Assembly (NCBI GenBank): GCA_038205115.1
Contig: JBBRCE010000009.1
Location: forward strand, 34,928-98,927
From: Pirellulales bacterium
Lineage (GTDB): Bacteria > Planctomycetota > Planctomycetia > Pirellulales > JBBRCE01
Direction: 5' to 3'
DNA: 64,000 nt
Below the pieces are notes generated by a model. That model was given only the letters and a program-made list of their open reading frames with translations, was not told the DNA's origin and did no database searches. This document shows, piece by piece, positions 1-17,304 of this stretch; position 1 is the stretch's first letter, and each line of letters starts with the position of its first letter. The translations under genes and the position numbers were made by a program.

Positions 1-861
1 CGAGGTCAGCAACAGGCGGCGGGCCGTTTGATCGTCTCGCCGCTGGCAAAACGCAATCGAACTCGCCAGGTAGCCCGCGCCCAACAGCAGCATGGCCGTC
101 ACGTAAAACCCTGCGCTGGCAGACACGGCCGGCAGCAAACTCAGCGGGATCAACAGCGCCGACCAAACCACGGCTTGAATGCCGGCCCGGCGACCGCTGC
201 CTTCCACCGCCGGCAGCATTTTCATATTGGCGGCCGCATACTGGGCGCGATAGATCCAGGCAATCGCCATGAAATGCGGAAATTGCCACATGAAGACAAT
301 CGCAAACAGCGTCAGGGCTTTCGCACCGCTGCCGGAAAAATCCCAGCGGTTCGAACCGACTGCGGCCGCCCAACCAATCAAAACGGGCACCGCGCCGGCG
401 ACCGCGCCAACCAGCGTGTTCGCCACCGAGCGGGTCTTCATCGGCGTGTACACGCAGACGTATAAGAACCACGTGACGAAACCGAGCAGCGCAGCCAGCC
501 AGTTGACCGCCAGCCCCAGATAAATCACACCGACAATTGCGGTGGCCGTGCCCAACGAAAAAACTTCGCCCGCCGAGAGCCGGCCCGACGGCAAGGGCCG
601 ATCGGCCGTCCGAGGCATCAAGGCATCACTATGCCGTTCGATCCATTGATTAAAAGCGCTGGCGCTAGTGGCCACCAGCGCCGTGCCAAGCAGCGTACTG
701 AACAATGTCAGGCCAGCAGGCAACCCGGCGCTCAGGGCGGCCACGGCCACGCAGACGAGTACCAGCACGGCAATCCGCGGCTTTGCTAATTCCACGTAAT
801 CCGCCAGCCGAGTCCAAACGCCGGTCCGCCGCACTTCGTAACTGATTGCGGCCAAGTTCAT
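1..861 (-). CDS. ctaB: Protoheme IX farnesyltransferase (heme O synthase); 3' end runs off the window
   Basis: Not in the ORF track because no stop lies inside the window. Hand translation of the minus strand from ATG 861 gives MNLAAISYEVRRTGVWTRLADYVELAKPRIAVLVLV..., later ..NQWIERHSDALMPRTADRPLPSGR... The frame is open to base 1 (287 codons). The pattern is UbiA-family. ATGA start/stop overlap with ctaA at 858-861. Confidence 0.85.
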   Translation of the reverse strand, partial: MNLAAISYEVRRTGVWTRLADYVELAKPRIAVLVLVCVAVAALSAGLPAGLTLFSTLLGTALVATSASAFNQWIERHSDALMPRTADRPLPSGRLSAGEVFSLGTATAIVGVIYLGLAVNWLAALLGFVTWFLYVCVYTPMKTRSVANTLVGAVAGAVPVLIGWAAAVGSNRWDFSGSGAKALTLFAIVFMWQFPHFMAIAWIYRAQYAAANMKMLPAVEGSGRRAGIQAVVWSALLIPLSLLPAVSASAGFYVTAMLLLGAGYLASSIAFCQRRDDQTARRLLLTS

Positions 862-1868
862 GCGCCGACTCCCATCAACATTTGAGACGAAGTCGCGGCA
901 GGAATCGCACGATGCAGTTGGCGGCAAACCCGCACCGCCAACATCACGCTCAATGCCAGAATCAACGATCCCAGCGCCACGTGCGCGGTTGTCAGATTGG
1001 TTTGCCAAATACCGCCAGCTTCGACTGTGTAGCCTGCGGCAAAGCGATAGTTGACCCAAGCCGGCCAGCCATAATGCGTGACATACGCCGCGCAACCTAG
1101 GAGCAATTGCACACCAATCGCGGCCAGTAAAGCGGTGCTTGGCCATAGCCAATGCGATTCTGCGCGGAACCGCCGCCAGACAATCATCCCCACGAGCAGA
1201 ATATGAATAGTAACCGCCAGCGCCACGAGCAAATGCCCCCACAGGATCACGCGCGAAAAGCCTGCGCTGGCATCGGCGTTGAAGTGGCGAAGTTGCGCGC
1301 CCAGCAGCAGTTGCAGATACACTAGTGCCGCGGTCAAGATGCTCAGCCGCCGCAATTTGGCCGCCTGCGGCTGATCGACCGGCGGTTGTTCTCGCCGCCA
1401 GTAACGCGACGTCATCACGGCCAGTGACACAGCATATGCAAAAAACGCCGGTCCCAAGCAACCGTGAATCATGGCCAACGTTTCTTTGTTCATTCTGACG
1501 CGCATTCCGCCCAGCATTCCTTGGCCAATCACGATCAGCAGCGCGACCACCGCGGCGATTTTCATCCAATCGCGACGGTCGTAAGCATAAACCGCGACCA
1601 CCAGCGCAATCGCAATCACGCCCACCAATGCGCCGAACAAGCGATGCCCATGCTCGACAAAAATATCCCACGGCCCATACACCCAGGTCCGCCACGGATA
1701 GAGAAACAAATTATGCCCGTAGGTATTGGGCCAATCTGGCACGGACATGCCCGCCTTCAAACTCGTGACCAGCCCGCCAACCCAAATCAGCGGAAACGTC
1801 GCGCAGCACAAAGCCACCGCCAAACGGTGCGGCCAAGGGCTGGTGAATTGTGCAGGATTTGAAGTCAC
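858..1868 (-). CDS. ctaA: Heme A synthase (CtaA/COX15 family)
   Basis: 336-aa polytopic ORF with His-bearing helices (..FVEHGHRLFGALVG.., ..AMIHGCLGPAFF.., ..TTAHVALGSL..). It sits between ctaD and ctaB. Confidence 0.8.
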   Translation of the reverse strand: MTSNPAQFTSPWPHRLAVALCCATFPLIWVGGLVTSLKAGMSVPDWPNTYGHNLFLYPWRTWVYGPWDIFVEHGHRLFGALVGVIAIALVVAVYAYDRRDWMKIAAVVALLIVIGQGMLGGMRVRMNKETLAMIHGCLGPAFFAYAVSLAVMTSRYWRREQPPVDQPQAAKLRRLSILTAALVYLQLLLGAQLRHFNADASAGFSRVILWGHLLVALAVTIHILLVGMIVWRRFRAESHWLWPSTALLAAIGVQLLLGCAAYVTHYGWPAWVNYRFAAGYTVEAGGIWQTNLTTAHVALGSLILALSVMLAVRVCRQLHRAIPAATSSQMLMGVGA

Positions 1869-1966
1869 GGAAATCAGATCGAAAAAACGGTTCAGGGCAA
1901 CTCTTCAAAAAGTTCGTGACGGTGGTGCAAACTCTCGCCCCGCCGACGACGAATCGCAGATGGATT

Positions 1967-3772
1967 TTAGTGTTCGCCCGGTTTCTTAGGTGGCTGATTA
2001 GGCGTGGTGTCTGGCGGCGGTTGCGTCTGTGGGTAGAAGTCAGTATCGACTTCTGGCGAATTGTATTCGTACGGACCGCGATACACGATCGGTTGGAAGT
2101 CAAAATTGCCGTGTCCCGGTGGGCTGGGTGCCATCCATTCCAGACCGTTAGCGTGCCACGGGTTGCGGCCAGCGATTGGTCCCTTGAACATGCTCCAGAC
2201 GAAGTTGATGGCAAAAATGATTTGCGAGGCCACCATGCCAATCGCGCACCAGGTCATGAACCGGTTGAGCGGCAACAAATGATGAAACGTCTGGTAGTGA
2301 TACGGGTCGGCCAGGCGGCGCGGAAACGCGTTGGCGCCCAAAATGTGCATCGTAAAGAACGTGCCATTCAAAAAGATAAATGTCAGCAAGAAGTGGACTT
2401 TGCCCCAGCTCTCGTTCATCAGTCGGCCGAACATTTTGGGATACCAGAAATAAATTGCCCCAAACACGCCCATCGCCGTGCCGGCAAACAACACGTAGTG
2501 GAAGTGCGCGACGATGAAGTAGGTGTCGTGAATAAAAATATCCACCGGCGTGGCCGCCATGAAAATGCCTGATAATCCGCCGATGATGAACATCGACACA
2601 AACGACAACGCAAACAACATGGGCGTGGTGTACTGGATGTTTCCGCCCCACAGCGTGCCCAGCCAGTTGAACGTTTTGATGGCGCTGGGCAGCGCAATCA
2701 TCATCGTCGAAACCATGAACGTCATGCCCAAAGCCGGATTCATGCCGGAGACAAACATGTGATGCCCCCAAACCACAAATCCCAGTCCGGCAATACCAGA
2801 GATCGAATACACCATCGGCTTATAGCCAAACAGCGGCTTGCGGGCAAAGCAACTGATGATATCGCTGACCATGCCCATCGCTGGCAAAATCATGATGTAC
2901 ACGGCCGGATGGCTATAAAACCAAAACAAGTGCTGCCAAAGTAGCGGCTGGCCGCCACCGGCGGAAATGGACGAATTGTTGACCACCAAACCTTCCGGCA
3001 GAAAAAAGCCGGTGCCGATCGTGCGATCCATCAATTGCATGAAGCCAGCCGCCGTGAGCACCGGCAACGCAAAGGCTTGCAACACCGCCGTGATGAACAT
3101 CGCCCAGATGGTCATCGGCAGGCGAAACATCGTCATGCCTGGCGCTCGCATCTGAATGATGGTGGTCAAATAATTGACCGAACCCATCATTGACGAAATG
3201 CCGACAAGCGTCAGACCGAGCAGCCACAGGTTTTGCGCATTCAAACTGCCTGGCGCCGCGCCCACATGCACCGAAAGCGGCGGATAAACCGTCCAGCCGC
3301 TGGCGGGCGGTCCGCCCGACATGAAAAAACTGCTTCCGAAACACATAAACGCCGGCCACATAAACCAGTAGCTGAGCATGTTCAGCGTCGGAAAGGCCAT
3401 ATCGTCGGCACCGATCATCAGCGGGATCAAATAGTTACCAAACGCGCCAGCCAGAATCGGGATGATCACCAAAAAGATCATCACCGTGGCGTGCATCGTG
3501 AACAGCACGGTGTAAAACTCGGGCGCAATCTGACCGCCTTCGGCCGAAAACAGCATCCGGCCAATGATTGGCATGCCCTGCCAGGGATAAGCCAATTGCC
3601 AGCGGATGCCCAGCGCCAGTAGGCCGCCGACAAAAAACCACAACAGAGTCGAAAACAGGAACTGAATCCCGATGATCTTGTGATCTTTGGAAAAAACATA
3701 GGTACTGATGAAGCTGGCCGAGTGGCCGTGCGCCGCTTCATGACCGTGCATGTCGGCCGTGATCGTGCTCAT
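1967..3772 (-). CDS. ctaD: Cytochrome c oxidase subunit I (A-type heme-copper oxidase)
   Basis: The track ORF is 1967..3922. I prefer ATG 3772 (MSTITADMHGHEAAHG..), which makes an ATGA overlap with the ctaC stop. Signatures: ..WQHLFWFYSHPAVYIMILPAMG.., ..VVWGHHMFVSGM... Pro-rich C-terminal tail. Confidence 0.95.
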   Translation of the reverse strand: MSTITADMHGHEAAHGHSASFISTYVFSKDHKIIGIQFLFSTLLWFFVGGLLALGIRWQLAYPWQGMPIIGRMLFSAEGGQIAPEFYTVLFTMHATVMIFLVIIPILAGAFGNYLIPLMIGADDMAFPTLNMLSYWFMWPAFMCFGSSFFMSGGPPASGWTVYPPLSVHVGAAPGSLNAQNLWLLGLTLVGISSMMGSVNYLTTIIQMRAPGMTMFRLPMTIWAMFITAVLQAFALPVLTAAGFMQLMDRTIGTGFFLPEGLVVNNSSISAGGGQPLLWQHLFWFYSHPAVYIMILPAMGMVSDIISCFARKPLFGYKPMVYSISGIAGLGFVVWGHHMFVSGMNPALGMTFMVSTMMIALPSAIKTFNWLGTLWGGNIQYTTPMLFALSFVSMFIIGGLSGIFMAATPVDIFIHDTYFIVAHFHYVLFAGTAMGVFGAIYFWYPKMFGRLMNESWGKVHFLLTFIFLNGTFFTMHILGANAFPRRLADPYHYQTFHHLLPLNRFMTWCAIGMVASQIIFAINFVWSMFKGPIAGRNPWHANGLEWMAPSPPGHGNFDFQPIVYRGPYEYNSPEVDTDFYPQTQPPPDTTPNQPPKKPGEH

Positions 3773-4572
3773 GGAATGTCCTTTTTCTGCGCTGCCGCCG
3801 GCTCTTGCGTGGCTGATTGGTACTCTTGCAGGCTTTGCAAGAATTTGTCGTAGTCGGCCTGGCTTTCGACAATCAGCCGGCCTTTCATCTTGTAATGTCC
3901 CCAACCGCACAGTTCCGCGCACACCAGATCGTCTTTACCAATCTGCGTTGGCGTAAACCAAACCGGCTGCTTCATGCCAGGCACCGCGTCTTGCTTAACT
4001 CGCATGTTCGGCAAGAAAAAACTGTGCAACACATCTTGGCTTTTAAGTTGAATCAGAATCTTGCGATTCACTGGCACATGCAACTCGTTGACGGTGAATA
4101 AGTCGTCCGCAGTGCCAATGATTTTGTCCGGCCCGGGATAACGAAATCGCCACTCGAACTGCCGAGCAGTGACTTCAATTTCCACCGGTGGATCCTGCAT
4201 GTTGGCCATGTCCGGCCGACGCATTTTGTTGTCGGCCCAGACGTTCATCTGATAGATGGCAATGAACAACAGCGTGGCGGCCGGCACGATCGTCCAGACA
4301 ACTTCCAACGTGTGACTGCCATGCACGAACTTGGTCGGCGGGCGCTTGCCACTACGACTGTCGTAGCGCCACATGAACCAAAACATGGCGCCTTCGGTGA
4401 TGACAAATACCACGCCGGTCAGTGCCAGAATGAAGTAAAACAAGTGATCGATCGCGCCGCCGTTGGCGGAGTGATCTTCTGGCAACCAGATTTTTTCCTG
4501 CCATCCCCACACGAACGAGGCCACGCCTAAGACCGGCACGGCGAGGAAGAGCAGCGACCAAAACTTACCCAC
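3769..4572 (-). CDS. ctaC: Cytochrome c oxidase subunit II (CuA subunit, no fused cytochrome c domain)
   Basis: CuA motif CAELCGWGHYKM and two N-terminal TM helices. The 267 aa contain no CXXCH. Confidence 0.93.
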   Translation of the reverse strand: MGKFWSLLFLAVPVLGVASFVWGWQEKIWLPEDHSANGGAIDHLFYFILALTGVVFVITEGAMFWFMWRYDSRSGKRPPTKFVHGSHTLEVVWTIVPAATLLFIAIYQMNVWADNKMRRPDMANMQDPPVEIEVTARQFEWRFRYPGPDKIIGTADDLFTVNELHVPVNRKILIQLKSQDVLHSFFLPNMRVKQDAVPGMKQPVWFTPTQIGKDDLVCAELCGWGHYKMKGRLIVESQADYDKFLQSLQEYQSATQEPAAAQKKDIP

Positions 4573-4664: not shown

Positions 4665-5951
4665 TTAAAGGTTGTCTCGGTGGACGGTGGAACCGTCTTT
4701 GGCAGTGGAGAGTTCGCTTTCTGGCTCGAACGGCAAATTGCTGATGTAATCGACAATGTGCCAGATCAACTTCGAGTTATCGGCGGCCTTCTCGCCAGCG
4801 GCAATTCCCGGTGAACCAATGGCTTTGCCGTCCGGCATCGGCGTGCCGTTGATTCCGTTGTAAACGCGATAGTACAAGTCCAGCGGCCGGCGACCGCCCC
4901 GGAAAATGCCCGTGCGGATGTTTCGCGGCACGATCACCCGCTTAGGCAATGCACCCAGCGCGTAATCTTCGGCCGGCTTGACGTTTTCTTGCCACTTGTC
5001 GTAACGAACTGCGCCATCGTCGCCCATGGCCGACGGTCCGTGGCAGGCAATGCAACCGCCGCCGGCAACCTTGGGCGATTGCGTTTGGTAAAACAGCTTG
5101 CGGCCAATTTCGATCGATTTTGCCAGCTCGAAGTCCGGGTCTTGATCCTTGCTGGGCTTGGGCAGAACTTTGATCAGTTTCTTTTCGGCATTCTTCCAGT
5201 CGTTCCAATCCTTGTCGCACTTGGCCGAATCATCGGCAGCCAGAATCGTTTCGCGCAAGCTGAAAATTGCGTCGTTCTTTTTCTTGGCTGCCTCGATCTG
5301 CTCAGGCTTGAGTTTCTCGCCAGATTCCGGCTCCCAATTCTCATTGAGATACGCGGACAGGCGAAGTTCCGTCTCACCACGTAGACTAAGATACTTCACA
5401 TATTCAATCACGGCATCCATCTCGTCTTCGTCCAACAGCCGGAACGACGGCATGGCTGTGCCCGGAATGCCAAGCGTCAGCGTCTTTTTCAAGTCGGCAT
5501 CGGTGGGCGGAAAGGCGCCTTCGGTCGATTTGAACTTGTACCAACCGTGGCGATAATCGCGCGGATAAGGATTAAGGAACTGAGCGGTCGGGCCGGCGCC
5601 GTCGCCGGAAATGCCGTGGCAATGCACGCAATGCAAACGATACAGGCCCGTCTTGGCACCTTCAGCGCCCGTCACCGGACCAGCGGCCCGCTTGAGCTTA
5701 TCAATATTCAAGCCCGTTTCAGGCAACGCGTAAGGATCGTCAGGCGTGCCAAATAGTGCCGTCAGCGTGTTGGCCAGCACTTGCTGCTGACGCTGATCGG
5801 CCACCGGGTCGAGACCGCCGTGCTTGAGTTCCACCAAATTCAGATGAAACCGGGCTGGCGGAGCGTCGCCGCAACCGGACAGACAAACCACCAGCACGGC
5901 GAGCGAGACCGCAGCCAGCGCAGGGCGGATCAAGAAAAATGGACTGTTCAT
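4665..5951 (-). CDS. Dihaem c-type cytochrome, probable lipoprotein
   Basis: Two CXXCH motifs (CVHCH, CIACH). Start chosen at ATG 5951 (MNSPFFLIRPALAAVSLAVLVVCLSGCG, signal peptide plus lipobox) rather than the track start 6017. Confidence 0.85.
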   Translation of the reverse strand: MNSPFFLIRPALAAVSLAVLVVCLSGCGDAPPARFHLNLVELKHGGLDPVADQRQQQVLANTLTALFGTPDDPYALPETGLNIDKLKRAAGPVTGAEGAKTGLYRLHCVHCHGISGDGAGPTAQFLNPYPRDYRHGWYKFKSTEGAFPPTDADLKKTLTLGIPGTAMPSFRLLDEDEMDAVIEYVKYLSLRGETELRLSAYLNENWEPESGEKLKPEQIEAAKKKNDAIFSLRETILAADDSAKCDKDWNDWKNAEKKLIKVLPKPSKDQDPDFELAKSIEIGRKLFYQTQSPKVAGGGCIACHGPSAMGDDGAVRYDKWQENVKPAEDYALGALPKRVIVPRNIRTGIFRGGRRPLDLYYRVYNGINGTPMPDGKAIGSPGIAAGEKAADNSKLIWHIVDYISNLPFEPESELSTAKDGSTVHRDNL

Positions 5952-6062
5952 ATTTGCGTTTCGCGAGATCATCGTTAGCGGCGAATGGTTTGACGGGCGC
6001 GTTGCGGTTGCCGCCAAACAGCGGCAGGCAGGGCAGCGCGCGGCGGCCAGAATGTTGATGGT

Positions 6063-6941
6063 CTATTTCAAGGCCGATTCCGGAATGGTGGCTTTGATTT
6101 CTAGCGGCTTGTCGGCAGCCAACTTCACGGTAAAGCGGCCCTTGGACGTGGCCTTATAATCCTTGAGTTCGGTTTGATCCAGAGGCAGGCCGCCGGTAGC
6201 GCGTTCGTGCCAGACTTGAATTTCCAAGTCGTCGCCCGCCGGCAAGTTCGCCAGTTCGAAGCGACCTTCGTTATCGGTAATGGCCACGTACGCATCTTTA
6301 CGAACCGCAATCCAGCCAGCCATCCAACCGTGTACGCCACAGGTGACTTTGAGCGGCACGTTGGCTGCTTCCGGCGGGGTGACCGGCACTTCCTGTCCGC
6401 CGGGAATGCTCGGATTGGCAAAGCCCAGGTTGCTATTATGTAGCACGGAATCCGAATTACGAATCAGCATCTCTTGACCGGCGATGGCCGCGATCACGTG
6501 CGGCGCGAAACGGCAATCTTTGTTGTCCAACACCACCTTCGGCAGCTTGGCGTCGGGACTGACAGGATAGTTTTTGCTGGCAACCGTCAGCACCAGATTG
6601 GCCAGGCCCTTGTTGGGTCCGACAACCAGCGACTCGTCAACCAGTTGCGTTTTGCCGCAGACTTCCGGATCTTTGCCCTGCGTATCGATTTTTGCGGGCG
6701 TGGGCGGATTGCCCGCAAACAAAAACTGCCCCTTGAGCGTGCCGAAGCCGCTCCAGTTTTTTGCGGCGGCCACCGGCGCAGCGGTCGCGTTGCCGCCCGT
6801 GGCCAGCAGCGCGCGCTGGCTTTTAGCTTTGCTCAAATCCACTTGCGGATCCGGCAAATTCCGGCCACCGCCACAACCATTTAGCGACATGCCCAGCAAC
6901 GTGAGCGCAGCCAGCGTTAAAGGTAGACGAAACTTATTCAC
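6063..6941 (-). CDS. Cupredoxin-like (type-1 Cu ligand pattern) lipoprotein with C-terminal beta-sandwich domain, paralog 3
   Basis: Track ORF 6063..7181 overlaps the upstream gene. GTG 6941 gives VNKFRLPLTLAALTLLGMSLNGCGG (signal peptide plus lipobox-like NGC). Ligand-like pattern LHNSN ... CGVHGWM (H / C-x2-H-x2-M, compare amicyanin CTPHPFM). The tail ..EGRFELANLPAGDDLEIQVWHE.. resembles a carboxypeptidase-regulatory/Ig-like fold. Confidence 0.7.
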   Translation of the reverse strand: MNKFRLPLTLAALTLLGMSLNGCGGGRNLPDPQVDLSKAKSQRALLATGGNATAAPVAAAKNWSGFGTLKGQFLFAGNPPTPAKIDTQGKDPEVCGKTQLVDESLVVGPNKGLANLVLTVASKNYPVSPDAKLPKVVLDNKDCRFAPHVIAAIAGQEMLIRNSDSVLHNSNLGFANPSIPGGQEVPVTPPEAANVPLKVTCGVHGWMAGWIAVRKDAYVAITDNEGRFELANLPAGDDLEIQVWHERATGGLPLDQTELKDYKATSKGRFTVKLAADKPLEIKATIPESALK

Positions 6942-6972
6942 GATAGACCTAAAACTCGAGTTGCAGTTGGCG

Positions 6973-7905: not shown

Positions 7906-8691
7906 TTACTTCAAATCCGAAATTTCGAGTTCAATATCGCCCAGGTCGTTCTTGCCGGCCTTGATTTCCGTGGTGAATTTGCCCTTGGTCCAAACGGTAT
8001 CCTTGCCACCCAATTTGACCTTCGTGATGTACTTTTCGCCGCGAGCGACAAACTCGAAGCTGCCCACCGGCAAGTTCTTGATTTCGAACTTGCCGTCTTT
8101 GCCCGAAACCACCGCGTAGGGATCAGCACGCACCAGCACTTGGGCCTTCATCCACGGGTGAATGTTGCACGTCACATTGGTCGGACTGGTTTCCGCATCT
8201 TCCACTTCCACTTCCACATCCGCACCAGCGGGTATCAGCGGATTGGTGGGCGGATTGACCACAAAAGCGACATTACTGTTGTGCCCGATGGGGTCGGAAT
8301 TCTTGATGACCAACGTCTGGCCGGCGCGCATCACCAGAACATGTGGCTCAAAACGGCAACCCTTGTTGTCCAGCGTGACTTTGTCTTTGGCCGTCTTCTT
8401 GTAGTCTGGATGAATGCTGGTCGGCTTTTTCGATAAATAGACCATCAGGTTGGCCACTCCGCCGTCTTTGCCGACCGTCACCGATTCATCGTACAGTTGC
8501 ACTTTGCCACAAACTTCCGGGTCTTTATTGGCATCGATTTTATCGGGCTTAGGCACGTCGCCTTTCAGTACGAACCGGCCGGTCAGCGTACCCCAGTCGT
8601 CTGCCTGCGCCATGCTTGACCAACCGCACACGACCACTGCCGCCAGCATTGCCACTGCCGCCAACACTGCAAATCTCATCTTCGTTTTCAT
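7906..8691 (-). CDS. Cupredoxin-like secreted protein, paralog 1
   Basis: Signal peptide MKTKMRFAVLAAVAMLAAVVVCGWSSMAQA. Ligand-like pattern GHNSN ... CNIHPWM. Tail domain GKFEIKNLPVGSFEFVARGEKY. Confidence 0.75.
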   Translation of the reverse strand: MKTKMRFAVLAAVAMLAAVVVCGWSSMAQADDWGTLTGRFVLKGDVPKPDKIDANKDPEVCGKVQLYDESVTVGKDGGVANLMVYLSKKPTSIHPDYKKTAKDKVTLDNKGCRFEPHVLVMRAGQTLVIKNSDPIGHNSNVAFVVNPPTNPLIPAGADVEVEVEDAETSPTNVTCNIHPWMKAQVLVRADPYAVVSGKDGKFEIKNLPVGSFEFVARGEKYITKVKLGGKDTVWTKGKFTTEIKAGKNDLGDIELEISDLK

Positions 8692-8789: not shown

Positions 8790-11700
8790 TTATTTGGCTT
8801 CTTCAGGTTTGACGTTGTCGTCCGGCTTATTTTTGTCGTCCGACTTCGTATTGTCGTCGGGCTTATTTTTATCGTCCGCATTGGGCTTCGATTTGTCGGC
8901 GGCGGGCGCCGGCGCCTTGATCAGCGGCACGACGGAGAACTTCTCCTTGGCCAGCCGGTCGTAATTCATCAGCAAATCGGTTAAGCCCCAGAGCTGGTCT
9001 TGGCTATCGCCGGGGAACAGTTTTTGATCGGCCGGTTTATTCGGCGCGATGTTTTGCGGCATGGGCGTGTATGGCAGAATTCGCGAAGGCTTAGCCAACC
9101 AGGGATGCACGTAATCCGGACGCAATCGCTGGTGGACCATCGCCAGATTGGGCGCCATGGCCCGCACGCTGCCTTGCGGCGAAAAGTCGCCCACCTTGTG
9201 ACACTTGATGCAATAATTGTTGTCGACCACGATGTTTAACGCTTGCCGCCAATCTTTCTCGGAACTGTCCGATTCTTTCAGTTTGGTCGCAGCGACGGTC
9301 ATCATTTGCGGTGCGGACGATTTTTGATACGGATAGTCCGCGTCGTCCACGGCCGCAAAGTAATTCACCAGCGCCGTCGATTCGGCGGCCGCCATGTTAA
9401 ACCGCGGCATCCGCAGCGAAGCCGCCGGACGAATCGGATAAGGATTCTGCAAGAAGTTGAACAACCACTCGCTTTGCACCTTGCGGCCTTCGCCCAGCAG
9501 CGGCGGAGGTAGCCAGCCCAGCACTTCCATGGCTTTTTGTTGCTTGCCGGCCATCGTGGCGCGTTCGGCCTTGAGAATGTACGGCCAAACCAGACGGGCA
9601 AAATCGCCGCCGAACGCCGGGTAATGACGCCCGTTGCGCTCGCGCCCCATGGGCAGTTTCACTTTGTCGCCCACTTGCGCCGCGTTGCCGTCAATCAGTG
9701 TCGGCTCCCAGAGCACCAACTGGTGAAAATCGGCTTGCGTGGGATCGTCGGCGACATCGCCGTCGGCGGTCATCATTTGCTCTTTCATCGACTCGTCGCG
9801 GTCCGTCATGCCGACTAGCGTGGTGTGACGCATGCCGCGGCGGTCCATGTCGAGCGACTTTTTGATATCGTCCGGCTTGAAATGTTTGGCCATAAAAGCG
9901 TAATCGTCGGCCGCCGGTTTGAATTTTTTGAAGTCGCCTTCGTCGTCGCCGGCCGGCTTGTAGGTAATGTCCCAGCGATCCATGCGAATCGTGTGACAGC
10001 CAACGCAATTGAATTTTTCCAGCAACCGCGAGCCTTCGACAATCGCCGCCTGCCGCGGTTCCGGATGGAAGACATATTGCGTCGCCGGCGGGTCGGCCAC
10101 CAAACCCAACACGAACGTGATCACGGCTTCTCGCTGTTCAGGCGTAAAGTTGAACTTGGGCATGCGCAGCCGGTCGTTGTACTTCTTGTTCTGAGCCGCT
10201 TTGTAGTCGTAACTGCGTGGTTCGCGCAGCTTTTGCCAGACGAAGCCTTCTCGCTGGTGCTCTTCGACTTTTTCTTCGAAGTACGCATCGTCCTGATCGG
10301 CTCGATCCGCAAAGCCAGGCGGCTTGCCTGCGGCCGGATCGCCACCGTGGGCGTGTCCGCCGGCGGGCGCGGGCACCGATTTGTCGGCCGCGACGCCGGA
10401 GTGCATGTTGGCCAACTCCGATTCGCCATGATGTTGCAGATATTCGGCAATCTGCTCGAACGCCAGTTTCGAAGGCTCTTTTTTACCCCAGTCAGCGAGC
10501 GCCGTGCCGATGCCCTTGGCGTCTTCGAAGCCAGGGATGTCGTGACAGCCTGCGCAACCATATTTGGCGATGGTGCGACGGCCGACGTATTGCAGCAGTC
10601 GATCGGTTTGCGTCTTGGAGGAATCGGTGACGATCAAATACGTCTCGTCGCCGCGGGCTTCGGCTTTTTGCTTGAGCGGAATTCCGTCGCGCAGATAACG
10701 CTCGGCCCGTTCGACCGGCATCTTCTCAATCAGGTACAGCCGGGCCAATTTGTGGAGCGAATCGGATTCCAGATTGCTCAACGACTTCCGCTCCGGCACA
10801 TCCGTCAGATCCCAATCGCTGGCCTTCTTGCCACCTTCGTTCTTGCCCTGCAAGGTCATTAGATACGCGGCAATGTCGGTGGCAGGATCGGACGTTTGCT
10901 TGCCGCCGCCAGCCACAACCGTATCCATTGGCTCCAGATATAAATTTGGCATCAACGAGCGCGGATGATAGCGCTGCGGGTCGCGGACCCAGCCCGCCAG
11001 CCAACTCTGACCACCCTCTTTGCCTTCGGGGTGGTGCAGCATCTTAGCGCCAATCCGCGACAGGTCGGGGCCAAACACGGCGGCGCCCTGAGGAATGCTG
11101 CTATCTTTGGCTTGATGGCAGGCCAGACAGCCACGCGTGGCAAACAGTTCTTTGCCGCGCTCGGCACTGGCCGCAAGCTCGACCTTGCCGACCGCCGCCT
11201 CGTCCAGCTTCTGACTACTGGCCAACAGATATTCGACACTAGCGCGAATTTCGATCGGCTCCATATCTTGCGCCTCTTTCAAACCCGCGCCATCCAAGTG
11301 ATCCCACAATCCGAAGAACCGCGGCATCCGCGTGGTCGGGCGGAATTCCGTGGGATTGCGAATCCAATCGTAAAGAAAGTTGTAATCCAGCTTGCTGCCG
11401 ACATGCCGCAGACTCGGACCGACTTTGCGGAACTTGCCGGGCGACTCCACATCCTTGAGCACGCTTTCCAGCTTGTGCGAAGCGGCGCTCAATAGCGGCG
11501 GCTTTTCGTTATCCACTTTCGCCAGCGCATCGGCGGCTGCTTGATCGGCAAGGCTTTTGTCGGCCAGCAGTTTTTCGCGAAGCAGATTTCGCGACGCATC
11601 ATCTTCCGGATGAGCGACGATCTTCGCCACCAATTGACGCCACTGCTCGGCAGCTTGCTTTTCCTTTTTGCTGCCCGCGGCCAGAGTTTCGAACGCTGGA

Positions 11701-13736
11701 TCGGTCAGCAGTTGCTGCACGCCAGCCGTGTAGTTGGGCTCGGCACGCATGTCTGGACCGACACGCCGCGCCGGACCGTCGTATCCATTGATTTCGTGGC
11801 AGCCGAAGCAACCATAGCGACGGATCAAGTTGTAGCCTTCCACCACCTTGGGGGCCGGTGCTTCCGGGAACTTAGGACTGGCCTCCAGCTCCACCACATC
11901 GTGATGGCATTTCAGACAAGAACTTTCTTGAAAACGATTCGGCCGCATCGGATAAATCCAATGGTGGTTTTCGAACCAGCCATCGTCCTTCGTCCACTTC
12001 TCGGCCTGCCGTGGACTGTTGGGCGTGTGCGAGGCGTATTCAAACGAGGTGGCACTGCCTTGGCCTTCATGGCACGACGTGCAGCCCATGGTGGCCAGCG
12101 GATGCGGACTGAGCGAGCCGACGAACAAATCCAAACGCGGGTGCGAATTGAACGGTTCCGGCACTCCCCGACGAACGCGCAGTTGAATGGGCTCGCCCCA
12201 CTTGACGTCCTTGGTCAACAGATCAATGGCCTTCTGACGCTCGTAGATTGGCGTGCCGTTGATTTCGCGAATCACATCGCCCGCCATCAATCCGGCTTCC
12301 GTCGCGGTCTTAAGCGGCCAAACCGCATTGACCGTAACGTCTTCCGGATCGAGCCAACCGGTATCGGAGATCTGCATGCCGTACATGTCGTCGGTGGTCG
12401 CGTTGTCCGGCTTCTTGGCCGGCGTCGGCAGCTTGACGATCTCGATCCGCTCGTGCTCGTTGGCGGGCTCAATCGCCGAGCCCGGCATCGTCCGATCAAT
12501 GAACTGATGGCAGGTCGTGCAGCGATCGAACCGCGCCGTCTCACGGAAATTGTAGGCTTTGTGCTTGAGGTTGGGCAACCAAATCTGATCGATCTTGAGC
12601 GGCGAATTGAACGCTTCAGCAACCGGCAACGTAAGAATGTCTTTGCCGATGTTCAACGCCTTTTCTTTGCGAGCTTTGACGAGCTTCTCGACCCGGTCGT
12701 TGCTGTTGTCAAGCGCTTTCTGGGCTGCTTCGACTTCTTCCGTCAGCGCTTTGAGCGACTGCTCAAGGACGACGCGATGTTGCTTAACGTCGGCCGATCT
12801 GGCCGCGGCCGCGTCCACCAACTTGGAGTCCGCGTTGACTTTTTCTTGCAACTTCGCTTGTTCTTCCGACGACAAATCATCACGAACGGCCAGGCTGAAA
12901 TTAGCGGTGGATTCCGAAAAATTGGCCTTGGTATTTTTTGTATCGCGACTCTGCAACCACTCCGTCTGCTTCGCCTTTTCGATTTCGGCCTTCATCAAAT
13001 CCACCAGTTTCCGGCGGGCCGCAATCGCCAGCTTGTCGGCGTCATCGCTGGTCTTTCGCGCCTCAACCCGCTTTTCCTCAGCCTGTTCGCTGGCCTTCTT
13101 CAATACGTCGTAGTCTGATTCCGGCTTTGCGACGTTTTTCTGGGCTGCGACCTCCGCGGCTTTCGTCGACGCTTCCAACAATTTTTTTGCGGCATCCGCG
13201 CGGGCTTCCGCCTTTTTGTATTCGTCCGCCGCCTCGCGCGCTGCTTTGGCGGGCGGCAGCGCATCTTTGTAGGCTTTTTCGAGCTGCTGAATATCGGACT
13301 GATCCGTGACCACAGATTCCAGCTTGTTGAGCAAGCCAGAAAGTTCCTCTTCCGTCGCAGCGGGCAAAGTGGCCGCGACATAATCGTTTGCGTACGGCTC
13401 GGCTTTTTCGGGCGAAGTTTGCTGCAGCCGGTTGTAAAGCAGCTCAATCTGAAATCGATCGACGGGCGCCAAACGTGGATCTTTGCGGCGCGCGGCCTGC
13501 AAATTCGACTGAAGCGCTAGATTCTCGGTTTTGTAATCTTGATTTTCCTGTTCAGCAATCCGGGCTTGAATTTGATGCGTTTCCAAGCGGTTGCCATGCC
13601 GCTGCGATTGCTTCCAAGGACGGTAATGATCCACAGCCAGCATCCAGACCGTGGTGATCAATAAAGTCAGCGACGTAATGCCAAACACCAAGTGCATCAA
13701 CTTGGGGCTACGCCATGTTTGTTCTGTTGCAGGCAT
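8790..13736 (-). CDS. Membrane-anchored octahaem c-type cytochrome with long coiled-coil region and PDZ-like domain; candidate c-subunit of the Rieske/cyt b complex
   Basis: 1648-aa ORF. N-terminal TM helix (LMHLVFGITSLTLLITTVWMLAV), then about 400 aa of Q/E/K/A-rich heptad-like sequence. Eight CXXCH motifs (CTTCH, CTSCH, CLKCH, CFGCH, CLACH, CAGCH, CVGCH, CIKCH). PDZ-like TEAGLMAGDVIREINGTPIY..IQLRVRRG at about 12150-12400. K/P/D-rich C-terminal tail. Confidence 0.9.
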   Translation of the reverse strand: MPATEQTWRSPKLMHLVFGITSLTLLITTVWMLAVDHYRPWKQSQRHGNRLETHQIQARIAEQENQDYKTENLALQSNLQAARRKDPRLAPVDRFQIELLYNRLQQTSPEKAEPYANDYVAATLPAATEEELSGLLNKLESVVTDQSDIQQLEKAYKDALPPAKAAREAADEYKKAEARADAAKKLLEASTKAAEVAAQKNVAKPESDYDVLKKASEQAEEKRVEARKTSDDADKLAIAARRKLVDLMKAEIEKAKQTEWLQSRDTKNTKANFSESTANFSLAVRDDLSSEEQAKLQEKVNADSKLVDAAAARSADVKQHRVVLEQSLKALTEEVEAAQKALDNSNDRVEKLVKARKEKALNIGKDILTLPVAEAFNSPLKIDQIWLPNLKHKAYNFRETARFDRCTTCHQFIDRTMPGSAIEPANEHERIEIVKLPTPAKKPDNATTDDMYGMQISDTGWLDPEDVTVNAVWPLKTATEAGLMAGDVIREINGTPIYERQKAIDLLTKDVKWGEPIQLRVRRGVPEPFNSHPRLDLFVGSLSPHPLATMGCTSCHEGQGSATSFEYASHTPNSPRQAEKWTKDDGWFENHHWIYPMRPNRFQESSCLKCHHDVVELEASPKFPEAPAPKVVEGYNLIRRYGCFGCHEINGYDGPARRVGPDMRAEPNYTAGVQQLLTDPAFETLAAGSKKEKQAAEQWRQLVAKIVAHPEDDASRNLLREKLLADKSLADQAAADALAKVDNEKPPLLSAASHKLESVLKDVESPGKFRKVGPSLRHVGSKLDYNFLYDWIRNPTEFRPTTRMPRFFGLWDHLDGAGLKEAQDMEPIEIRASVEYLLASSQKLDEAAVGKVELAASAERGKELFATRGCLACHQAKDSSIPQGAAVFGPDLSRIGAKMLHHPEGKEGGQSWLAGWVRDPQRYHPRSLMPNLYLEPMDTVVAGGGKQTSDPATDIAAYLMTLQGKNEGGKKASDWDLTDVPERKSLSNLESDSLHKLARLYLIEKMPVERAERYLRDGIPLKQKAEARGDETYLIVTDSSKTQTDRLLQYVGRRTIAKYGCAGCHDIPGFEDAKGIGTALADWGKKEPSKLAFEQIAEYLQHHGESELANMHSGVAADKSVPAPAGGHAHGGDPAAGKPPGFADRADQDDAYFEEKVEEHQREGFVWQKLREPRSYDYKAAQNKKYNDRLRMPKFNFTPEQREAVITFVLGLVADPPATQYVFHPEPRQAAIVEGSRLLEKFNCVGCHTIRMDRWDITYKPAGDDEGDFKKFKPAADDYAFMAKHFKPDDIKKSLDMDRRGMRHTTLVGMTDRDESMKEQMMTADGDVADDPTQADFHQLVLWEPTLIDGNAAQVGDKVKLPMGRERNGRHYPAFGGDFARLVWPYILKAERATMAGKQQKAMEVLGWLPPPLLGEGRKVQSEWLFNFLQNPYPIRPAASLRMPRFNMAAAESTALVNYFAAVDDADYPYQKSSAPQMMTVAATKLKESDSSEKDWRQALNIVVDNNYCIKCHKVGDFSPQGSVRAMAPNLAMVHQRLRPDYVHPWLAKPSRILPYTPMPQNIAPNKPADQKLFPGDSQDQLWGLTDLLMNYDRLAKEKFSVVPLIKAPAPAADKSKPNADDKNKPDDNTKSDDKNKPDDNVKPEEAK

Positions 13737-13793: not shown

Positions 13794-15125
13794 TTAGAAA
13801 TTCAAGAAGTATTCGGGAATGCTAATGATGTACTTCAAATTAAACACCCAACGCAGCACCATCTTGATCGGCAACGTAAGCATCAACAGGAACAAATTTG
13901 ACATCACGATGTAACGCCAAAATCCCATCTTCGCGTAGAAATTACGAAACACTGTGGTGGCCATCAACGGCGGCAACGCCAGCATGTATAACGCCATCGA
14001 AAGAATGCCAGGTGCCTCGCGCAGCAGAATATAGAGAAAATCGACCGTCGCCGACGATCCCGTAGGCGCCTTAGGCATCGACTGATGGAACAACCCCACC
14101 CAGAAATAGTCCGAGAGGTCGCGGTTGGTCAAATTCAGAACCTTGTGCGCGTCCCAGTGCTCGAACGGCCCGAAGATGTTCCAATTTGGCCCGCGCAAGA
14201 ACGTGCCCAAGATGATCAGCGTGATCCACAAATCTAAAAAGCCAAACTGAAAGATCAAGTAGCTGAATTTCCGCTCGGCAATCGTGTAATAGCCGTTGCC
14301 CTTCTTGTTGAAATCTAAATACGGAATGGCCATCAACCCGGCGACCACCACGCTCGGCAGCACCACGCCGGCATACCAGGGATCAAAGTAAACCAGCATC
14401 TCTTGCAGCCCGAGGAAGTACCACGGCGCTTTGGACGGGTTCGGAGTTTTGACACTGCTGGCCGGTTCTTCCAGCGGCGCTTTGAGCAGGATCGCCCAAA
14501 CCAACAAAAACGCAGTCAGCGCGATCATGCAGATCAGTTCGGTATAAACCAAATCTGGCCAGACCAGCACTTTTTCCGAATCGTCCTTTTCGGTCGGCGG
14601 CAGGCCGCGCGCAATGCGATCGTCGTTTTCCACAGCTTTGGCCGTGGCTAGCCATGTGAAAAAACCCAGCAAATAAACCAAGCCCACAATCGGCACGTTG
14701 TCGGGCTTGGTGACGATGTTCGCAAATTCACGGTTGGTGATCGACAAACCCATCAGCAACAGCACGACATTCAGCAGCGACCAAGCCACGACGGGATTTA
14801 CGAAAAACCGCCGAAACACAAACATGAACGTCAGCATCAGCGTCGAGCCTAGGCTGTAAACCACCGGACCGGTCGCGCTGTTGACCAAGCCCTCGATCCC
14901 AACAAACCAGCTTTGCACGCCAGGCATGGTTTCGCGGGCGCCGCTCATCGCCAGCGGCGAGAGAATCACAAAGAACAGCGCAACACCGAGCCAAACCAGG
15001 GCCAGGCCGCCACGATCTTTGCGGAGCCACATATACAGCGCGGCAACCGCGTTCATGGCCGCCAGAAACAAATAGTAGGTGCCGAGAAAACCGGCAATCC
15101 CGTGCAAAAAAGCCTTGTCGTCCAT
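13794..15125 (-). CDS. Cytochrome b C-terminal half / subunit IV-like protein, enlarged (443 aa)
   Basis: Polytopic protein. ..KAPWYFLGLQEMLVYF.. matches the PEWY/FL region of the cytochrome b C-terminal domain. It lies downstream of the cyt b6-like gene. Confidence 0.8.
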   Translation of the reverse strand: MDDKAFLHGIAGFLGTYYLFLAAMNAVAALYMWLRKDRGGLALVWLGVALFFVILSPLAMSGARETMPGVQSWFVGIEGLVNSATGPVVYSLGSTLMLTFMFVFRRFFVNPVVAWSLLNVVLLLMGLSITNREFANIVTKPDNVPIVGLVYLLGFFTWLATAKAVENDDRIARGLPPTEKDDSEKVLVWPDLVYTELICMIALTAFLLVWAILLKAPLEEPASSVKTPNPSKAPWYFLGLQEMLVYFDPWYAGVVLPSVVVAGLMAIPYLDFNKKGNGYYTIAERKFSYLIFQFGFLDLWITLIILGTFLRGPNWNIFGPFEHWDAHKVLNLTNRDLSDYFWVGLFHQSMPKAPTGSSATVDFLYILLREAPGILSMALYMLALPPLMATTVFRNFYAKMGFWRYIVMSNLFLLMLTLPIKMVLRWVFNLKYIISIPEYFLNF

Positions 15126-15310
15126 AATGCTAACTTCTGATTCCTAATTGCGCCGCCTGCCCGAATGGTTTACAAACTGTCGAAAACCAGCGCGGACGCC
15201 AAAACATTCCAACATCGCTCGTCCGTCAAAACTACACTCGAGCCCCGTTCCACCGCATCATATTGCCGCCATCGCATTGCCGCCGGATACTGGCAAATCC
15301 CGCGGCCAAT

Positions 15311-15353
15311 TCACAGCGGACCATTTACAGCGGACCATTCACAGTGGACCACT
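15311..15353. repeat. 14/15-nt direct repeat x3 spanning the cyt b6-like stop codon
   Basis: Plus strand: tcacagcggaccatt / tacagcggaccatt / cacagtggaccact. On the minus strand each unit ends in TGA, TAA or TGA. The first unit encodes the C-terminal ..SGPL*. Confidence 0.8.
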
Positions 15354-16112
15354 GATGCCGCCGTCTTTACGCACCCGCCAAAAGTGGATTGCCAGCAGCA
15401 GCGAAACGGCCAGCGGAATGGCCACGCAGTGCAAAACATAAAAGCGGTTGAGCGTTTCTTCGCCGACGAACCGCGCGCCCAGCAAACCAAACCGCGCATC
15501 CGAGGCGTTAGTAATCATGCGTATGCCGCCCAGTTGCAGCAGTTGCTGACCAGGCCCTTCATGCCCCAGCAGCGGCGTCGCGCGGGCCATATTCGAACCG
15601 ACCGTGATCGCCCAAATGGCCAACTGATCCCACGGCAGCAGGTAGCCGGTGAACGAGAGCAGCAGCGTCAGCAACAACAGAATGACGCCCACCACCCAGT
15701 TGAACTCGCGCGGCGGCTTGTAACTGCCGGTGAGAAACACCCGATACATGTGCAACCAAACGGTAATCACCATGGCGTGCGCGCCCCAACGATGGAGCTC
15801 TCGCAAAATACCTAAACTATTCACGTCGCGCAGCGCAAGAATGTCCTGAAACGCCCATTCGAGCGTCGGCCGGTAGTAAAACATCAACAGCACGCCGGTG
15901 ACGGTTTCCACCAGAAACAAAAAGAACGTCACGCCGCCCATGCACCAAGTGTAACTGAGTGCGATACCTTGCTTTTTGACCGAAACTGGATGCAAGTGCA
16001 GAAAGAAATTGGTGAGCATCACCACGATCCGATTACGCCGGTCTAGCGGCATCGGGTGACGGAAGACGCTCTTCCAGATTTGCGAATTACGAATCGTTTC
16101 GCCTAGCGACAT
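15339..16112 (-). CDS. Cytochrome b6-type protein (N-terminal, four-helix haem-binding half of cytochrome b)
   Basis: Start ATG 16112 ([16 protein letters not shown]..). His pairs at [19 protein letters not shown] and [20 protein letters not shown]. Also ..[16 protein letters not shown]... Confidence 0.9.
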
Positions 16113-16221
16113 ATGCACACGTAGTTTGAATTCTCGTGAACCACTTTGCCCCGCGTCGGCCGACAAAGCAGAAACCCAACCGCATCCCACCGTCACAAAT
16201 TAACTTCTACCCAATTGCCGC

Positions 16222-17304
16222 CTACGCAACCACGTAGGACGCCGGATCGACCCACTGGCCGATTTCTTCCTGAAACAGCTTGCTTTTATCAACTTCCAAC
16301 TGGCCGTCGTCGGAAACGCGGATTGCATATCGCTCCAGCGGACGCGGCGCAGGGCCTTCGAAATTGATGCCGTCTTTATAAAACCCACTGCCATGGCAAG
16401 GGCATTTGAATTTCTGCTCGCCTTCAAGCCAGTTCGGCGTGCAACCCAAGTGCGTACACACCGTCCGCAGCGCGTAAATTTCCGGCTGCCCCTGATATTC
16501 GTAATTCACGATCCAAACGCCAAACTGCGCCACAAACTTGGTTTCGACCTGGCCTGGGGCAAAGTTCGCCGGAAAGCCCACTTTAAACCGACTCGGCGGC
16601 TCCGTGAGAATGTTTGGAAACATGAACCGGGCAAAACCCAGCGTCCACAGACCGCCGACCAGCGCCAGGCAGGTAAAGCCCAGCGCCAACATCGAACCGA
16701 ACATGATTTCCAGAAAGCCACGGCGACTTTCGGCCGTGACGGCCGGTTTAATCTTGGGCTTGGCGTACTCCGGCTTTTGCGGCATCGGCGGCACATAAGC
16801 CTTGGGCTTGGCGGGCGCGGCTGGCTTGGGCAGCGGCACACCCTTGGCGGCCGCTTCCGCCTTGCTCATCGGACCGGGCTTCACGCCACTGCGCGCGGCC
16901 GCCAAAATGCTGCCAGTCTCTTTTTCGACCGGAGCCATTGGCTCGTCTTTGACCGGCTTCTCCGCCTTGGCCACCGGTTTTGGTGCGACTGGCTTCGCCG
17001 CGATGGGCGTCGCCGCGGGCGTTGCCGTGGCAGGTTCGCCGGCTGGCTTACTCTTTTCGGCACGAGCGGCGGCCATCATTTCCGCCACGCTCATTCGGCC
17101 ACCCTTGCCAGCACCGGCGCCCGGCTTGGCAACCGTCGGCTTGACGGCAGGCTGGGGCTTTTCGGCCGCCGGAACAGGTGGCGCGGGCTCGGCCACGGCT
17201 TCACTTGCGGCCGGCGCGCCTTCAGCAGCCGCTTTGGCCGCTTTTTCCGCACGAGCAGCGGCCAGAATTTCCGCCACCGACAATTTTTTCTTTTCTTCAG
17301 CCAT
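16222..17304 (-). CDS. Rieske [2Fe-2S] subunit with a long Ala/Pro/Lys-rich N-terminal extension
   Basis: Rieske boxes CTHLGC and CPCHGS. Twin-arginine motif ESRRGFLEIMF followed by a TM helix. I prefer ATG 17304 (MAEEKKKLSVAEIL..); the track start 17520 would translate the 27-bp DNA repeat. The exact start is uncertain. Confidence 0.85.
   Translation of the reverse strand: MAEEKKKLSVAEILAAARAEKAAKAAAEGAPAASEAVAEPAPPVPAAEKPQPAVKPTVAKPGAGAGKGGRMSVAEMMAAARAEKSKPAGEPATATPAATPIAAKPVAPKPVAKAEKPVKDEPMAPVEKETGSILAAARSGVKPGPMSKAEAAAKGVPLPKPAAPAKPKAYVPPMPQKPEYAKPKIKPAVTAESRRGFLEIMFGSMLALGFTCLALVGGLWTLGFARFMFPNILTEPPSRFKVGFPANFAPGQVETKFVAQFGVWIVNYEYQGQPEIYALRTVCTHLGCTPNWLEGEQKFKCPCHGSGFYKDGINFEGPAPRPLERYAIRVSDDGQLEVDKSKLFQEEIGQWVDPASYVVA

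Follow-up and report, generated by a model that had tools for sequence, protein, structure and literature searches.

Gene Content of the Locus

The stretch of DNA analysed here (hereafter the window) is a 64 kb segment of contig JBBRCE010000009.1 from a Pirellulales bacterium, and its first 17 kb hold a minus-strand gene cluster for a Rieske/cytochrome b complex, c-type cytochromes, cupredoxins, a haem-copper oxidase and the enzymes of haem A synthesis. Twelve consecutive minus-strand genes, identified by Pfam and NCBIfam scans, follow one another in exactly the order given in a preliminary description of the locus, and open a conserved cluster that comprises about 14–16 genes in Pirellulales-type planctomycetes. 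They are listed below by coordinate.

1..861, minus strand: ctaB, haem O synthase (Pfam UbiA, E 2.3e-53), with its 3' end cut by the window start
858..1868, minus strand: ctaA, haem A synthase, 336 amino acids (Pfam COX15-CtaA, E 6.9e-20)
1967..3772, minus strand: coxI, 601 amino acids, predicted A2-type (Pfam COX1, 492 bits)
3769..4572, minus strand: coxII, 267 amino acids (Pfam COX2 and COX2_TM; TIGR02866 CoxB at 163.6 bits, above the cutoff)
4665..5972, minus strand: dihaem c-type cytochrome, predicted lipoprotein (Pfam Cytochrom_C; two CXXCH motifs)
6063..6941, minus strand: cupredoxin 3 ("G-type"), predicted lipoprotein with a GTG start and His/Cys/His/Met ligands
6973..7878, minus strand: cupredoxin 2, tandem paralogue of cupredoxin 1 (63% identity)
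7906..8691, minus strand: cupredoxin 1 ("E-type"), with a cleavable signal peptide, invariant ligands and an amicyanin-like predicted fold
8790..13736, minus strand: octahaem c-type cytochrome, 1648 amino acids (eight CXXCH motifs; Pfam PDZ)
13794..15125, minus strand: subunit-IV-like protein, 443 amino acids (Pfam Cytochrom_B_C, residues 221–297)
15339..16112, minus strand: cytochrome b6-like protein, 257 amino acids (Pfam Cytochrome_B, E 1.9e-41, 142.5 bits)
16222..17304, minus strand: Rieske iron-sulfur protein, 360 amino acids (Pfam Rieske, E 7e-10)

The finer points of the preliminary description were likewise borne out. The two ATGA stop/start overlaps were placed exactly, at 3769–3772 between ctaC (coxII) and coxI and at 858–861 between ctaA and ctaB, and the haem counts are eight CXXCH motifs in the 1648-residue protein and two in the 450-residue protein, the latter being the maximal open reading frame of the dihaem cytochrome, which extends to 6017. 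No cytochrome c1 or f homologue was found, with zero family matches among the cluster proteins in Pfam and NCBIfam, and CoxII, with 267 amino acids, a CuA motif and zero CXXCH motifs, carries no fused haem c domain. In public genomes the components are labelled piecemeal, as "plastocyanin", "cytochrome c2" or "PDZ domain-containing protein".

Synteny in Related Genomes and the Position of Oxidase Subunit III

Relatives of the cluster were found through an alignment of the dihaem cytochrome, a family carried by at least 329 species-level genomes with a best identity of 47% among GTDB species representatives; the best 80 loci were taken, all of them from planctomycete metagenome-assembled genomes mostly labelled Pirellulales, and gene order was compared by tblastn with all window proteins across 82 loci. 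The conserved order was Rieske, cytochrome b6-like, subunit IV, octahaem cytochrome, cupredoxin(s), dihaem cytochrome, coxII, coxI, ctaA, ctaB, coxIII and coxIV, which was kept in 82 of 82 loci as far as the contigs reach and in three more annotated contexts (85 in total), the whole stretch from Rieske to coxIV being complete in 35 loci. The carriers of the 82 loci are merely 40–48% identical to those of the window, yet their order is constant. Two cupredoxin genes are present in most relatives and three in the window and in locus L086, and the intergenic gaps in the relatives are short, with medians of about 10–45 nt as measured from maximal open reading frames. Five contexts besides the best 80 loci were reached independently, through cupredoxin homologues, and all five exhibited the same cluster, preceded by a gene transcribed divergently from the Rieske gene; this divergent gene, judged from its position, marks the 5' boundary of the cluster in the relatives. 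Orthologues scattered over related genomes, which the preliminary description had named as a sign against a single unit, were looked for in the 82 loci and the three annotated contexts, and the cluster was not broken up in any of them.

The one claim that did not stand concerns oxidase subunit III, a gene for which had been reported as lacking from the cluster. The window start truncates the cluster inside ctaB, and a Logan contig of the same organism (L084), found by an exact look-up of the window's CtaA and carrying an identical CtaA, matches window positions 1–400 at 400 of 400 nucleotides and continues beyond them. There ctaB is complete, encoding 302 amino acids with its stop 48 nt beyond window position 1, and after a gap of 116 nt it is followed by a gene that matches Pfam COX3 and is 60% identical to the CoxIII of a relative (E 4e-69). 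Likewise, coxIII stands directly after ctaB in 49 of the 49 related loci that reach that far, with coxIV (COX4_pro) next. The absence of subunit III is therefore an artefact of truncation at the window edge: subunits III and IV of the predicted A2 oxidase are encoded beyond the window, right after ctaB, and no homologue of coxIII or coxIV was found elsewhere in the 64 kb window. Beyond COX3 and COX4_pro, SCO1 and DUF420 genes are frequent in the related loci, and the annotated contexts encode SCO1/SenC and DUF420 proteins or an ABC-2 transporter. Other exact-protein look-ups gave matches of the octahaem cytochrome, as of CtaA, to short Logan contigs from one sample, and no match for cupredoxin 1 or CoxI.

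The Rieske/Cytochrome b Core

The Rieske protein contains both [2Fe-2S] boxes, CTHLGC and CPCHGSGF, which are kept in 46 of 48 orthologues, together with a twin-arginine signal anchor (SRRGFL), and its NCBIfam matches are PetC-like and below the cutoff. Ahead of the twin-arginine signal lies an N-terminal cytoplasmic extension of about 190 amino acids (16735–17304), rich in Ala, Pro and Lys and without a Pfam match, in which the motif SVAEILAAAR is repeated three times, as LSVAEILAAARAEK, MSVAEMMAAARAEK and KETGSILAAARSGV. Motifs of this type occur one to three times in 36 of 37 Rieske orthologues, and a stricter form of the motif is confined to the Rieske extension throughout the window and the 82 loci.

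The cytochrome b is split into a b6-like gene and a separate subunit-IV-like gene with the Qo motif. The b6-like protein probably starts at 16112, giving 257 amino acids as in most orthologues, and displays four histidine haem ligands with b6-type spacing (13 and 14 intervening residues) and a C-M-G-G motif with the putative haem c_n cysteine, a motif shared by 52 of 52 orthologues. It is the cysteine of CxGG that binds haem c_n in the b6f and firmicute enzymes. The haem c_n CxGG motif has been noted in Planctomycetes (PMC5600118), and a clade with the APWY motif that includes Planctomycetes has been described (PMC4122944). Among NCBIfam families, Geobacter ExtP (259 bits) and cytochrome b6 come nearest to the b6-like protein, each scoring below its cutoff. 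Its gene (15339–16112) is also unusually constrained, with a median identity to the orthologues of 92.6%, compared with 40–65% for its neighbours in the same loci (L001–L082). The subunit-IV-like protein carries the Qo motif APWY, found in 50 of 52 orthologues, and exhibits about 10 hydrophobic segments by hydropathy, not 3; its nearest NCBIfam families, ExtQ and b6f subunit IV, both score below cutoff. A three-helix subunit IV together with a cytochrome f, c1 or fused monohaem cytochrome c is thus not encoded here. By these motifs and alignments, the core is assigned to the "green-clade" b6-type Rieske/cytochrome b complexes, with a Rieske protein predicted to be Tat-exported and an enlarged, split-off subunit IV.

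The Octahaem Cytochrome

The gene that stands where a cytochrome c1 or f gene would be encodes the octahaem cytochrome, whose eight CXXCH motifs are 100% conserved and aligned in 51 orthologues, with the Met-Pro ligand motifs conserved as well. Its domains follow the order of an N-terminal anchor, which is the single hydrophobic segment of the protein (residues 17–35), a helical region of variable length (about 50–370), a PDZ domain, the haem sites and a charged tail. The PDZ domain is supported by Pfam, by a PDB profile comparison with DegP/RseP and by Foldseek. The C-terminal tail (8790–8880) is rich in Lys, Asp, Pro and Asn, is encoded by an 18-bp tandem repeat at 8815–8878 and is poorly conserved among the orthologues.

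A PDB search with the single octahaem sequence gave no match, and the family profile matched PDZ domains and generic class I cytochromes c only, so the protein as a whole has no solved relative there. One of its class I domains bears a weak resemblance to cytochromes c of the mitochondrial type and to the cytochrome c domain fused to Thermus caa3 subunit II (2yev_B, E 7e-4). The AlphaFold2 model of residues 380–1579 was poor, at a predicted local distance difference test (pLDDT) value of 60, and Foldseek returned PDZ matches only. A binding of the PDZ domain to the cupredoxin C-termini was considered and set aside as speculation, the C-terminal Lys or Gln of those proteins being a non-canonical PDZ ligand.

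The Blue-Copper Proteins

The three "cupredoxin-like" proteins of the preliminary description proved to be genuine cupredoxins by their ligands, profile match and fold model. The copper ligands H137, C175, H178 and M181 do not vary among 30 sequences, with the three paralogues of the window among them; in the profile alignment the pattern H...C-x2-H-x2-M aligns with the copper site C-T-P-H-P-F-M of amicyanin, and the family profile matches amicyanin at E 1.6e-3. The AlphaFold2 model of cupredoxin 1 (pLDDT 91) is a cupredoxin beta-sandwich, for which the best Foldseek matches were amicyanin (E 8.7e-7), the NirK cupredoxin domain, plastocyanin and pseudoazurin, with target TM scores of about 0.7. 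On these alignments and this model, the proteins are amicyanin-type blue-copper proteins with predicted type 1 copper sites. They are not single-domain carriers of about 100 amino acids: with about 260–300 amino acids, each comprises an N-terminal strand region, the copper domain and a second beta-sandwich similar to CarboxypepD_reg.

The alternative that these proteins are copper chaperones or assembly factors for CuA/CuB, and not electron carriers, was weighed against the same data. Their genes adjoin the oxidase genes, their second domain is non-redox, additional residues (Cys61, Cys112 and His117) are invariant, and their matches to Pfam Cupredoxin_1 fall below threshold; on the other side, the ligand set aligns with the type 1 site of amicyanin and a dedicated SCO1 is encoded downstream in the relatives, which makes a chaperone role very improbable. 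PCuAC-type chaperones in particular are ruled out by the ligand pattern, and the Pfam scan gave no match to a PCuAC-type family.

The paralogues differ in their predicted membrane attachment. Cupredoxin 1 has an ordinary cleavable signal peptide (..AQA/DD), conserved in the E-type, and is probably soluble by this signal; a fully hard-wired chain is therefore disfavoured. Lipoboxes are present in the other two of the three window cupredoxins. Cupredoxin 3 (G-type), with its GTG start at 6941 and an AGG 7 nt upstream, shows a lipobox in 29 of 30 orthologues and a flexible linker of about 40 residues. Cupredoxin 2 has gained a lipobox and a linker of TPDA (Thr-Pro-Asp-Ala) repeats, encoded by a 15-bp tandem repeat at 7739–7807.

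The Dihaem Cytochrome and the Terminal Oxidase

The dihaem cytochrome carries a lipobox, LSGC, with an invariant Cys, and as coxII directly follows its gene in every locus, it is the likeliest immediate donor to CuA. Its nearest solved relative is PDB 6H5L chain B (E 1.8e-23), the dihaem partner in the structure of the hydroxylamine oxidoreductase (HAO) of Kuenenia stuttgartiensis, and its match to ActE is weak (6lod_E, E 1.5e-3). The 6H5L match links a carrier of an aerobic planctomycete to a family of anammox electron-transfer proteins.

The oxidase is assigned by its sequence motifs to the A2-type haem-copper oxidases. In helix VI of CoxI, YSHPAVY stands where A1 enzymes have their glutamate motif; all 55 orthologues share it, and the score of CoxI against TIGR02891 (607 bits) lies below the equivalog cutoff of 670.75. 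CoxII contains the CuA motif C-A-E-L-C-G-W-G-H-Y-K-M (C-x-E-x-C-x3-H-x2-M), and the CuA site is present in 75 of 76 orthologues, whose open reading frames, taken as maximal ones, are mostly about 250–300 amino acids long. Unlike subunit II of the well-studied A2 caa3 enzymes, the CoxII of the window has no cytochrome c domain fused to it. With its intact CuA site, the oxidase would take its electrons from a cytochrome c or a cupredoxin and not from quinol, and an identity as quinol oxidase is ruled out on the same ground. CtaA shows about eight hydrophobic segments, and since ctaA and ctaB are co-encoded with the oxidase, haem A is its likely cofactor.

A different use of the carriers would be a redox hub, in which the octahaem cytochrome and the cupredoxins would take up electrons from a donor in the periplasm or outside the cell, or feed acceptors other than oxygen, the electrons being divided, as with rusticyanin in Acidithiobacillus ferrooxidans, into a downhill branch to the oxidase and an uphill branch to the bc complex. 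Eight haems, three copper proteins and two further haems exceed what a simple link between a bc complex and an oxidase needs, and the nearest solved relative of the dihaem cytochrome is the partner of an HAO-like enzyme of Kuenenia. One octahaem domain also scores above the SoxX family cutoff (74.4 vs 61 bits), but this match spans a generic class I cytochrome c domain only, and no outer-membrane cytochrome, porin, substrate-oxidising enzyme or reductase was found in the cluster, whether in the window or in the relatives. Such a hub thus appears unlikely as the function of these genes.

Transcriptional Organization of the Cluster

No terminator-like hairpin on the coding strand was found in any minus-strand junction of the cluster, and sigma-70-like sites are rarer than in shuffles (2 vs 8.2 expected). 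The largest internal gap measures 213 nt, between the cytochrome b and subunit IV genes, and gaps of about 98 nt occur at three junctions. Tandem repeats of 14 bp were also observed in two internal junctions, at 15309–15351 (the cytochrome b stop and the 213-nt gap) and at 4609–4644 (the gap between the dihaem cytochrome and coxII). Upstream of the Rieske gene, two features were located.

17372..17504, minus strand: tandem repeat of 27 bp in 4.9 copies in the untranslated leader of the Rieske gene (TRF score 231, 95% identity)
17645..17672, minus strand: promoter-like element read from the sequence, TTGACA (17672–17667), a 16-nt spacer and TAAAAC

The promoter-like element sits just past the stop of the upstream DUF1559 gene and is put forward as a candidate promoter; the consensus scan missed it owing to the final C of the -10 hexamer. 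Each unit of the leader repeat holds the palindrome GCGAC-N4-GTCGC, with four matches compared with 0 expected, unique in the window, and a regulatory role of the repeat is possible. The repeat was not found upstream of the orthologues, many of these loci being too short upstream, and the repeats that relatives have in that area sit within the Rieske coding extension. The fold of the leader RNA is unconvincing (z score -2.07), and the leader gave no match in Rfam.

The cluster genes are probably co-transcribed as one operon starting upstream of the Rieske gene. The packaging of a bc-type complex, dedicated carriers, an aa3-type oxidase and haem A synthesis as one unit, as previously proposed, is supported by the synteny, the short gaps and the lack of terminator-like sites, and fails only in the absence of subunit III that it had included.

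The opposite possibility is that the genes are neighbouring but functionally independent modules, adjacency reflecting shared oxygen regulation or simple inheritance, with the Rieske/cytochrome b complex and the octahaem cytochrome serving several acceptors and the oxidase fed by any periplasmic carrier. The 213-nt gap lies inside the bc part and the gaps of about 98 nt at three junctions would also fit such a division, a predicted soluble cupredoxin could serve other partners, and several bc complexes and oxidases may coexist in Pirellulales (PMC6995999). However, the order is invariant in 85 loci despite the divergence of the carriers, the gaps in the relatives are short, and CoxII has no cytochrome c of its own, the intervening genes being the only candidate donors nearby. 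Independence of the modules is accordingly improbable.

Upstream of the cluster, three more minus-strand genes were observed at 17707–20775, encoding a DUF1559 protein with an N-terminal methylation motif, an unassigned 253-amino-acid protein and a PEP-CTERM-anchored protein similar to SMP-30/gluconolactonase; they are placed outside the cluster because the relatives have a divergent purD or GLUCM-like gene at this position. Farther away, 38790–44426 and 49635–51938 encode two large HlyD-like membrane-fusion proteins, one with a Peptidase_M50 match, and a BatA/VWA "aerotolerance"-type protein. No further respiratory genes were found elsewhere in the window among the ten large open reading frames scanned, and the Rfam scan of the whole window returned one tRNA only (44948–45021).

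Proposed Electron Transfer from Quinol to Oxygen

The cluster is best explained as encoding a dedicated, co-inherited chain from (mena)quinol to O2, a reading to which a probability of roughly 0.75 is assigned. Each part that such a route requires is encoded, along with genes for cofactor assembly, and the parts are kept together as one conserved block. Quinol would be oxidised at the Qo site of the b6-type core in a Q cycle, and the Rieske cluster would pass electrons to the octahaem cytochrome, serving as a substitute for cytochrome c1/f and as a multi-haem wire; from there the cupredoxins, the dihaem cytochrome or both, acting one after another or as parallel options, would carry them to CuA, and the oxidase would reduce O2 and pump protons. 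For the last step, a route from cupredoxin to CuA as in SoxM-type systems may be drawn by analogy and is equally possible as donation by the dihaem cytochrome.

Several points weigh against a dedicated chain and temper this probability. The reading is drawn from genes, from which the order of the carriers cannot be read. The 80 loci were selected via the dihaem cytochrome and are thus biased towards the cluster, and the contexts reached independently of it number only five. The promoter scan covered a sigma-70-like consensus, outside which planctomycete promoters fall, and the 213-nt and ~98-nt gaps could hold internal promoters. Menaquinol as the substrate comes from general knowledge of planctomycete quinones and not from this sequence. 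Lastly, the cultured relative Lacipirellula parvula is reported to contain three bc clusters, an alternative complex III (ACIII) and three oxidases (PMC6995999), so that the present chain may exist beside others and need not be the principal one.

Most carriers of the proposed chain are predicted to be attached to the membrane, the octahaem cytochrome by its transmembrane anchor and the dihaem cytochrome and G-type cupredoxin as lipoproteins, with the E-type cupredoxin as the exception. A close association of the two complexes is plausible on this basis, and the synteny and the tethering of most carriers are compatible with a physical supercomplex, of which they are no demonstration. The stronger proposal of a stable physical megacomplex, in which a dimer of the b6-type Rieske/cytochrome b complex and the A2 oxidase would be wired by the anchored octahaem cytochrome, is tentative and rather doubtful. 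In it, the helical stalk and PDZ domain of the octahaem cytochrome would scaffold the lipid-tethered blue-copper and dihaem carriers, and the 10-helix subunit IV and the SVAEILAAAR extension of the Rieske protein would provide lineage-specific docking or assembly; if true, it would represent a III-IV supercomplex hard-wired by both haem and copper, a type distinct from those of Actinobacteria, ACIII and SoxM.

Relation to Known Respiratory Clusters and Significance

Clusters joining a quinol-oxidising module with a terminal oxidase are known in Sulfolobus, Actinobacteria and ACIII organisms, and their study led to hard-wired supercomplexes; an ACIII-aa3 supercomplex is known in Flavobacterium. 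The actinobacterial bcc-aa3 system (qcrCAB, ctaCDEF) resembles the proposed planctomycete chain in that menaquinol is oxidised, a membrane-bound multihaem cytochrome, with two haems in this case, replaces c1 and wires the bc complex to CuA, and the bc and oxidase genes are partly adjacent; it differs in its unsplit cytochrome b without the haem c_n cysteine, in the lack of cupredoxins and in its carrier, the two-haem QcrC, whereas the planctomycete carrier has eight haems, about 1650 amino acids and a PDZ domain. Physical association is proven for bcc-aa3, whereas the planctomycete chain is known from its genes. SoxM of Sulfolobus acidocaldarius (soxEFGHIM) likewise combines Rieske, cytochrome b, blue-copper (sulfocyanin) and haem-copper oxidase genes in one cluster without cytochrome c1, the copper protein being the presumed link to CuA. 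It is, however, archaeal, uses caldariellaquinone, contains zero c-type haems, has a fused subunit I+III and an unsplit cytochrome b, and includes neither an octahaem or dihaem cytochrome nor haem A or Cu assembly genes in the cluster.

The firmicute b6c (QcrABC) and cyanobacterial b6f complexes, the latter with plastocyanin, resemble the planctomycete core in having cytochrome b6 split from subunit IV, in the CxGG cysteine and in the use of a cupredoxin or a small cytochrome as downstream carrier; their subunit IV has 3 helices, whereas that of the planctomycetes has about 10, with neither a cytochrome f nor a cytochrome c fused to subunit IV. In Acidithiobacillus ferrooxidans, the rus operon (cyc2-cyc1-coxBACD-rus) together with the petI bc1 genes likewise places a cupredoxin beside an aa3 oxidase and a dihaem cytochrome c, and it is the cupredoxin that connects the bc branch with that of the oxidase; there, electrons come from extracellular Fe(II) via an outer-membrane cytochrome and bc1 runs in reverse, whereas the planctomycete cluster has no such entry module. 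ACIII belongs to the complex iron-sulfur molybdoenzyme family and lacks a Rieske/cytochrome b complex, a Q cycle and cupredoxins. Where ACIII is joined to an oxidase, the underlying concept matches that of the present cluster, with multihaem and monohaem c subunits feeding an A-type oxidase, and ACIII clusters with caa3/aa3 oxidases ("COX operon type a-I") have been reported in Planctomycetes too, as a compact quinol-to-oxygen gene sequence (PMC4013037). A supercomplex of Rieske/cytochrome b and oxidase in Sulfolobus has been cited, and the haloarchaeal halocyanin-Rieske/cytochrome b cluster of the same source shares a split "green clade" cytochrome b, the lack of a c1/f gene and a co-encoded type 1 copper protein as proposed acceptor and oxidase donor, but its oxidase lies elsewhere, it has no c-type cytochromes and its halocyanin is single (PMC3509893). 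Topical full-text searching of open-access papers found no description of the present cluster, and in a paper on a Pirellulales genome, bc clusters, ACIII and oxidases are mentioned in generic terms only (PMC6995999).

The concept of a quinol-to-oxygen cluster is thus already known, and the present combination occurs in none of the systems compared. The parts newly combined are a core of the b6 type that carries the haem c_n cysteine, an octahaem cytochrome with a PDZ domain at the c1/f position, a pair of amicyanin-like proteins of which one is soluble and the other anchored by lipid, and an A2 oxidase that has lost its fused cytochrome c. Its invariance across no fewer than 85 environmental genomes of the Pirellulales type makes it probable that the cluster encodes a main aerobic chain of the group. 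Pirellulales-type planctomycetes are abundant in aquatic and soil habitats and their bioenergetics is experimentally almost untouched; the cluster offers a defined set of about 16 genes for studying how electrons cross the periplasm in these bacteria, and illustrates how bc complexes acquire new acceptor subunits.

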